Shown here: positions 34,646 through 35,167 of the stretch, piece by piece
Layout of the letters: each line of letters begins with the position of its first letter
Numbering within the stretch: the stretch's first letter is position 1
DNA from: an uncultured Bacillota bacterium
Lineage (GTDB): Bacteria; Bacillota_I; Bacilli_A; RF39; UBA660
Reading direction: 5' to 3'
DNA: 35,788 nt
Assembly: GCA_947179265.1 (NCBI GenBank)
Contig: CAMXBB010000001.1
Coordinates: 1-35,788 of the forward strand
Notes under the pieces: model-generated
The model's input: the letters and a program-made list of their open reading frames with translations, nothing else
Database searches by the model: none
What the model was told of the DNA's origin: nothing
Position numbers and translations under genes: made by a program

Positions 34646-35167
34646 ATGAAATGTAGTGTTAAGTATAATGAAGGAATCGATGAATTTACTGAGGATTTGT
34701 CCTTAGAGATGCGTTTAAAAAGATATATTAAAGATAAATTTTATCCAGCTTATGTAATAGCTCATTTGGCCCCAGTATATTTAGTTGGAGGTTCAATTAG
34801 AGATCTAATGATGGCTAAAGCACCGAAAGACTTAGATTTTATTGTAGTTGGTAATGAGCATAAGGAATGGGTCTTAAAAGTTTTAGAAAGATTTGGCATT
34901 ACTTATTCCTTTAACCGTTTTGGTGGGATGAAATTTACTTATAATGATACCTCTATTGATTTATGGACTGCAGATGATCTATTTTCATCGATGCAATATA
35001 ATGTTGATGGATTATATTATGATTTATCTGCAGATAGATTACTATCATTAACTTTTGCTGATTTTGTACATAAAGGTTTACGAGAGGTTAATCCCGATAA
35101 CAATATTGACGTTGGTAGAGAAAAAAAACTGCAAATGTTTGAAGAAACATTTAAAAAACAAGATTAA
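34646..35167 (+). CDS. Minimal pol-beta superfamily nucleotidyltransferase, CCA-adding/poly(A) polymerase head-domain type (173 aa)
   Basis: VYLVGGSIRDLMMAKAPKDLDFIV matches the GGxxRD-x8-12-DxD motif of PF01743-type enzymes. A third carboxylate strand is SIDLW. The neck-like LREVNP is present, but there is no body/tail domain. Confidence 0.7.
   Translation: MKCSVKYNEGIDEFTEDLSLEMRLKRYIKDKFYPAYVIAHLAPVYLVGGSIRDLMMAKAPKDLDFIVVGNEHKEWVLKVLERFGITYSFNRFGGMKFTYNDTSIDLWTADDLFSSMQYNVDGLYYDLSADRLLSLTFADFVHKGLREVNPDNNIDVGREKKLQMFEETFKKQD

Follow-up and report, generated by a model that had tools for sequence, protein, structure and literature searches.

The open reading frame at 34646..35167 (+ strand) raises the question of what a nucleotidyltransferase (NTase) with the catalytic head of a CCA-adding enzyme does when the domains that bind tRNA are missing. 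The window, that is, the whole stretch of 35,788 nucleotides that was analysed, is an entire contig (C1) of a 1.49 Mb genome that is 91% complete and spread over 236 contigs. The frame starts with ATG, has AGGTG 8 nt 5' of the start, and encodes a protein of 173 residues (P0001), a short class II NTase made of the head and the first neck helix, which belongs to a short clade related to CloB. In Pfam, PF01743 matches residues 44-106 over profile positions 1-63 of 126 (E 1.9e-6; 28.6 bits, for a cut-off of 23 bits), and PF12627 has no match. The host's own Cca, unlike the short protein, matches all three of PF01743, PF12627 and PF13735, the last two being the body and tail domains that are absent from the 173-residue protein. 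In NCBIfam only sub-threshold CCA/PcnB matches were obtained, over motif A. A sequence-only reading of this DNA had proposed a head-only architecture, which stands with regard to the two Pfam families PF01743 and PF12627, but has to be amended to a head with a minimal neck, given that the first neck helix (residues 158-172) is still present. The protein had also been said to stop right after the segment LREVNP, which is not the case, as this helix follows and carries R158, kept in 79 of the 80 aligned sequences, and K161, kept in all of them.

Pfam and the alignment place the motif A region at residues 44-64 (VYLVGGSIRD...PKDLD; 34775..34837, +), with the metal-binding D62 and D64. Further along, N90-x-F-G-G-x-K96 and D105-x-W107 (34913..34966, +) form a signature common to the NTases adjacent to CloA, in which D105 is the third carboxylate (SIDLW). 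A remodelled motif B, S115-M-Q-Y-N-V-D-G-L123 (34988..35014, +), replaces RRDFTINSL and has M116 at the position of the central arginine, and the terminal neck helix (35117..35161, +) contains R158 and K161 without the EDxxR template. The earlier claim that motif A and the third carboxylate are kept is borne out, since on careful alignment the DxD carboxylates are retained in 80 of 80 homologs; across these sequences R52, D62, D64, D105, Y118, N119, D121 and K161 are invariant. The divergence of motif B had also been correctly recognized: in the alignment with the host Cca, SMQYNVDGL takes the place of RRDFTINSL, and M or I replaces the central arginine of RRD in 76 of the 80 homologs.

The AlphaFold model of the protein is confident (pLDDT 92.7). 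Among solved structures it comes closest to the class II enzymes that add CCA or poly(A) (139-154 residues aligned at Z 9-10.5 and rmsd 3.6-3.9 Å), the likeness ending at the first neck helix. Downstream of the gene, tblastn and the body-domain HMM revealed no body-domain remnant in the six frames of the window tail, including the 139-nt spacer (best E 0.43-1.7), in agreement with what had been claimed. The intrinsic terminator that had been placed about 50 nt downstream is plausible: a stem-loop with a T run (approximately 35215..35240, +; -6.7 kcal/mol) lies about 48 nt past the stop codon, but it is missing from the consensus terminator scan, whose rule is three G-C pairs, and folding of the entire spacer gives a z of only -1.47.

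The frame is confirmed as a genuine short class II NTase and not a broken CCA-adding enzyme. Homologs numbered 87 among 294 candidates of 95-303 residues, and 81 of them are 168-192 residues long. This length, together with the lack of a body remnant and the presence of a separate intact cca, rules out the artefact of a frameshifted or split cca. Among 901 candidates of 304-2000 residues a single match was found (358 residues), and no CCA-body likeness was detected in its extension or in that of a 359-residue protein from locus L012, which has no Pfam match at 1e-5. The latter protein (L012:6001-7080) joins a family member to a 190-residue domain containing Cys and His, which is a separate gene at loci L007 and L008. 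The median dN/dS of the family is 0.36 (dS was usable for 274 of 300 pairs), and the short NTases are under purifying selection.

The CCA ends of tRNA are already taken care of in the carriers of this gene. A search of the rest of the genome found an intact cca of 362 residues on another contig (C216), with RRDFTINSL and EDPLR; all ten further carriers that were tested also have a full-length cca, and all 26 predicted tRNAs of the genome already end in CCA. The proposal that a catalytically plausible class II NTase without the tRNA-binding body has a different substrate is in line with this intact cca, and a non-tRNA substrate is likely. At the positions of the motif B RRD of the CCA-adding enzyme and poly(A) polymerase class the short protein has SMQ, and of the EDxxR template of motif D, placed by eye, the terminal helix keeps only R158 and K161. 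In PMC2910056 the recognition of the ribose is attributed to RRD and the templating of the base to EDxxR; given that no ribose-reading RRD is present, deoxynucleotides may be accepted. A low-specificity tailing of RNA or DNA 3' ends, in which an enzyme lacking the body domain would extend tRNA or other ends by one or a few nucleotides in the manner of MenT toxins, would agree with the intact catalytic triad, with the class II polymerases as best folds and with the likeness of the model to MenT1 (Z 5.4). Nonetheless, this is quite unlikely, given that the protein lacks RRD, EDxxR, body and tail, that cca is intact in all carriers tested, and that a solitary tRNA-tailing toxin would need an antitoxin, of which no conserved one is found.

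The NTase gene comes last of three close ORFs, with gaps of 2 and 8 nt between them; after it come the 139-nt spacer and an ORF of 154 residues. The first ORF (33829..34227, +; 132 residues) is weakly HepT/HEPN-like, lacks RX4-6H, and is adjacent without being a conserved partner; no MNT gene lies beside it. The second (34230..34637, +; 135 residues), 8 nt before the NTase gene, has no Pfam match and is not a conserved partner either. The 154-residue ORF (window 35307-35771) has a faint CYTH-like motif at its C-terminus, no ExExK and no Pfam match, and was rejected as a CYTH partner, its pairwise match to a phage CYTH protein also being weak (E 0.004). None of the three neighbours has a tblastn match in any other family locus compared, and the family neighbourhoods are unrelated to one another, close kin excepted, so that the suggestion of substrate recruitment through operon partners is not sustained. 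Of 119 flanking proteins listed at the family loci, 94 were scanned, with the L012 fusion added as a 95th; those with matches were mostly housekeeping or envelope genes, and no mobile-element context appeared among the 95. The NTase gene is itself chromosomal and sits among housekeeping genes. With PADLOC, P0001 had no match, and among 35 proteins there were just two matches, weak and unrelated. Elsewhere in the window, a PolC-type DNA polymerase III of 1924 residues with apparent insertions (19898-25672) exceeds the usual length of its family, about 1450 residues, and two adjoining long ORFs of 1217 and 1234 residues occupy 10888-18245.

The distribution of the gene is patchy. A strong match occurs in 12 of the 301 genomes of the order (the source genome, nine others at full length and two in part), none of them among the three same-genus genomes in this search, and a second query against 401 genomes found 13 carriers, with none among five in the genus. 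In 18 genomes of the genus, nothing beyond pieces of a GNAT gene substantially matches the DNA past lepB (about 32-35.8 kb). The 51 genome loci of the family come mostly from uncultured gut Bacilli/Tenericutes, which we take to be of the RF39 lineage, and beside them two further matches are CCA-type proteins of about 900 residues. The NTase gene is a sporadic, solitary accessory gene. Such sporadic occurrence and the approximately 8 of the 51 loci that appear truncated or frameshifted would fit a decaying or nearly neutral remnant with no current function, but this is highly improbable for a family whose catalytic residues are the same in all 80 sequences aligned, with a dN/dS below 1 and a tightly conserved length.

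The nearest characterised kin of the protein, which the sequence-only reading had missed, belong to Clover, a two-gene anti-phage system formed by the dGTPase CloA and the NTase CloB, in which CloB makes the dinucleotide p3diT, which restrains CloA, and a DxD mutant of CloB makes none (bioRxiv 10.1101/2025.07.09.663793). Among 72,556 plasmids no close relative was found; tblastn against plasmids gave weak matches (E ~1e-3) to hypothetical proteins of 229-235 residues. At each of three such plasmid loci examined the NTase lies directly behind a dGTPase gene, and one of these loci adjoins Hachiman and other defence genes. These partners are genuine dGTPases of Clover: the one from Bacillus has the Salmonella CloA structures (9p8t) as its best PDB matches, and in a Phaeobacter plasmid operon a dGTPase that matches Salmonella CloA (9p8t) at E 5e-139 is followed by an NTase relative of 259 residues. 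In a search of 1.84 billion proteins, many matches of 220-270 residues strongly resemble these dGTPase-adjacent NTases. A profile of the short relatives found 79 metagenome loci, with 51 long relatives, 25 short relatives and three loci without a called ORF. Directly upstream of the long relatives there is a CloA-type gene in 30 cases; in 14 of the 51 the preceding ORF resembles deoxyribosyltransferases (PF15891 at E 2.4e-6, which is below the cut-off), and seven, on contigs of 1-3 kb, have no recognised upstream partner.

Some of these long relatives have features of their own. In loci L167-L181 and L184 (for example, L168:5529-6651), a CloB-like NTase of 232-235 residues lies 10 nt after a 134-residue ORF that resembles nucleoside 2-deoxyribosyltransferases, with no dGTPase. 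The deoxyribosyltransferase-linked CloB-like loci number 14, many of them near-identical, and a Clover variant with another effector is possible. Two CloA-adjacent NTases of 531 and 449 residues (L187:2146-3741 and L193:1591-2940) are CloB proteins with long C-terminal fusions.

Comparison of profiles places the short family closer to the CloA-adjacent NTases than to CCA heads, as far as sequence likeness goes. With hhalign, the family aligns with the CloA-adjacent NTases at E 2.6e-18 over 117 columns and with CCA heads at E 1.8e-11 over 62 columns, and P0001 scores 47.7 bits with an HMM of only four CloA-adjacent NTases and 34.7 bits with one of 12 CCA heads. Against a 51-row CloB-like alignment the family reaches a probability of 99.6% (E 7e-25), a likeness favoured by the fact that all CloB-like rows were found in searches seeded with the short family. 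The family and the CloA-adjacent NTases have in common the signature [KR]DxD, NxFGG[YF]K, DxW, [YF]N and N152, and both the active site [D/E]h[D/E]..h[D/E]h and homology to CloB were found, with CloA-adjacent NTases standing in for CloB. The PDB sequence search returned no CloB structure. The AlphaFold model of a CloB-like protein (pLDDT 92.9) has class II CCA-adding enzymes and poly(A) polymerases as its best matches (Z 13-15.5), and the order of helices and strands is the same in both models up to the first neck helix, except for one inserted CloB helix.

The trees agree with these comparisons. In a mixture-model tree of 51 rows, the short clade (support 99/96) and the CloB-like clade (94/91) each stand apart from the CCA heads (100/99), and the short clade does not fall within the CloB-like one; with three groups, a sister relation between the two follows from placing the root at the CCA heads, and their nearness is a matter of branch lengths and scores only. 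A quick tree of 112 rows, with 10 rows dropped for thinning, gives the same picture (SH-aLRT 81 and 90). In this larger tree two phage NTases lie on long branches that were flagged with a warning, and they were omitted from the 51-row tree, which leaves Gad2-like phage enzymes unplaced.

This kinship does not make the locus a Clover system, nor is the NTase tied to the host dGTPase. Genes of the CloA type, housekeeping dGTPases, deoxyribosyltransferase-like genes and CYTH genes are absent from all 51 genome loci (509 kb), and no dGTPase was found near the short relatives at the 25 metagenome loci, several of which are short contigs or near-copies. The only CloA match in the source genome is a dGTPase-like gene of 371 residues on another contig (C105). 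Genes of this type occur in 189 of the 301 genomes, and among the ten intact carriers six have a strong match, one a weak match and three none; with no enrichment in carriers, this gene was rejected as a co-occurring partner. PF15891 co-occurs in two of five carriers, and in the source genome genes of this family (Nuc_deoxyri_tr2) are found at C121:3252-3545 and C122:1174-1467.

Beyond the chromosomal loci, the short clade extends to phages and to exporter fusions. In one type of IMG/VR phage (L114-L116), a short NTase frame of 181 residues lies among genes for a ligase, a methylase and other phage proteins; in one copy (L115:4878-5423) the frame has no ATG, GTG or TTG start that would give at least 70 residues. 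A second type is a temperate-phage-like region (L140-L142), where a short NTase of 162 residues lies 13 nt past a CYTH-like gene and near an anti-repressor (L142:5469-6453). These six loci represent two phage types and not six independent cases. Neither of the two phage-borne relatives has a match among GenBank phages. Scans of viral contigs with profiles A2 and P0134 gave no matches; the family profile A1 found seven loci, all of them CCA-type genes of 452-489 residues, and A3 found three loci of one phage type. The short NTase domain also occurs N-terminal to ABC exporters in proteins of 758-958 residues (P0134, P0139, P0149, P0096 and P0110; clusters of 12 and 3 members), which form one clade (100/97 in the 51-row tree); P0096 and P0110 carry two NTase copies, the first of them degenerate.

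The sequence-only reading had left the substrate as either a protein or a small molecule. As a protein nucleotidyltransferase (AMPylase or NMPylase), the enzyme would act on a protein of the host or of a phage, as has been suggested for Gad2 and other anti-defence NTases, or as MNT antitoxins act on HEPN toxins. In the ESM Atlas the neighbours of the NTase include phage clusters with PF01743 and Gad2 (PF26128), at scores of 0.96 and 0.93, a resemblance at the level of features only, and the best small viral folds are phage NTases of 167 residues (TM ~0.6). The HepT-like ORF two genes before the NTase (score 0.87) is a lead at most, and the ABC exporter fusions would fit the modification of an exported substrate. 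Nonetheless, the HepT-like ORF lacks RX4-6H and was not found beside the other members compared, the family HMMs score two Autographiviridae phage NTases far below CloB-like proteins, and Gad2 is itself a predicted NTase of about 400 residues, with a chemistry that is by prediction alone (bioRxiv 10.1101/2023.05.01.538930). A protein substrate is rather unlikely. The small-molecule branch is the better supported of the two, since the product of the closest characterised relatives is a dinucleotide.

Within this branch, the enzyme could also modify a xenobiotic or metabolite, as LnuA or ANT(2'') do. Proteins of this kind are of the same size class, the model resembles LnuA (Z 6.2) and ANT(2'') (Z 5.7), and both the scattered single-gene distribution in gut bacteria and the ABC-exporter fusions would suit such a role. 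These Z values, however, fall in the range that the tool labels a common arrangement, the sequence kin are CloB-like proteins and CCA heads, and neither a close relative among the 72,556 plasmids nor a mobile-element context among the 95 neighbours was found, which makes a transferase of this kind decidedly improbable.

We tentatively favour, at somewhat less than even confidence, a stand-alone, active and template-independent NTase of the CloB lineage, with a linear small nucleotide product that would act in trans. In this mechanism D62, D64 and D105 would bind two metals, and a very small acceptor, most probably another (d)NTP, would receive one nucleoside triphosphate at its 3'-OH. By analogy with p3diT of CloB, the product would be linear and of the pppN-pN type. 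With no effector adjacent, the product, or the drain on nucleotides, would act in trans, and the gene would move as a sporadic accessory among gut Bacilli and their phages. The doubt about a CloB-like synthase comes mainly from the missing effector and from the missing CloB insert and helices, which may be what holds the acceptor nucleotide in CloB. A bolder proposal, which we regard as a long shot, is that the short clade consists of orphan synthases of an off-signal: phage members would make p3diT or a related pppNpN that silences Clover-type dGTPase defence, the solitary copies of gut Bacilli would tune enzymes of the nucleotide pool in trans, and one branch would have become fused to ABC exporters. 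If true, this would be counter-defence by mimicry of an inhibitory immune signal.

Head-only class II enzymes are already known from PDB 2LA3, phage NTases, Gad2 and CloB. In the literature searched no description was found of a solitary, shortened or phage-borne CloB-like clade, although the approximately 650 CloB homologs in Supplementary Table 1 of the Clover preprint could include short solitary members. According to the models, enzymes of the CloB type have the class II CCA fold, and the term 'CCA' occurs 0 times in the main text of that preprint. A shorter clade without partners, found on chromosomes, in phages and in exporter fusions, suggests that linear dinucleotides could be made by a stripped class II CCA-type head outside Clover. 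The 173-residue NTase offers a small enzyme, predicted to be well folded, for probing the products of a minimal head, and the idea that its product suppresses CloA is testable. Should it be an ordinary modifying transferase, it would represent a new small family only.

When compared with known systems, the protein shares with class II CCA-adding enzymes and poly(A) polymerase I (PF01743, PF12627; PDB 3aql, 4wby, 1miv and 3h37) the head fold, motif A, the third carboxylate and the first neck helix, but it is half their length and lacks RRD, EDxxR, the flexible loop, the body and the tail. The phage head-only NTases (Gad2-like PF26128, PHROG 1614, Autographiviridae) are likewise small stand-alone class II heads, and the match to PHROG 1614 has an E of 3e-7. 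Nonetheless, their likeness in sequence is weak: across 50,697 phage records the best tblastn E is 1e-4 and no match covers 80%. The gene studied here is chromosomal, and more distant short relatives are borne by phages. The stand-alone CCA-enzyme head NP_344798.1 (PDB 2LA3; 191 residues) has the same head-and-neck-only architecture (Z 5.7, rmsd 4.5 Å, 144 residues aligned) at a similar size, and provides a precedent for it, although with 12% identity. Structure 2LA3 presumably belongs to NTP_transf_6 (PF06042), a family with no match in the source genome at E up to 1 and none among 107 aligned members at E up to 0.01. HEPN-MNT toxin-antitoxin pairs differ in that the neighbour here lacks RX4-6H and is not conserved, and the NTase has a class II fold and not a minimal class I fold. 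Hailong HalB is not among the best 50 fold matches listed, which excludes nothing. With CloB, as represented by the CloA-adjacent NTases, the protein shares a class II head and neck without a tRNA body and the loss of RRD and EDxxR. It is about 60 residues shorter, missing the T-W insert of about 18 residues and the three C-terminal helices with QxKHF, and it has no adjacent CloA or other effector and lies outside defence islands. The NTase is outside the Clover system, the CCA enzymes, PF06042 and HEPN-MNT, and the enzyme whose way of working it would follow is, on present evidence, CloB.
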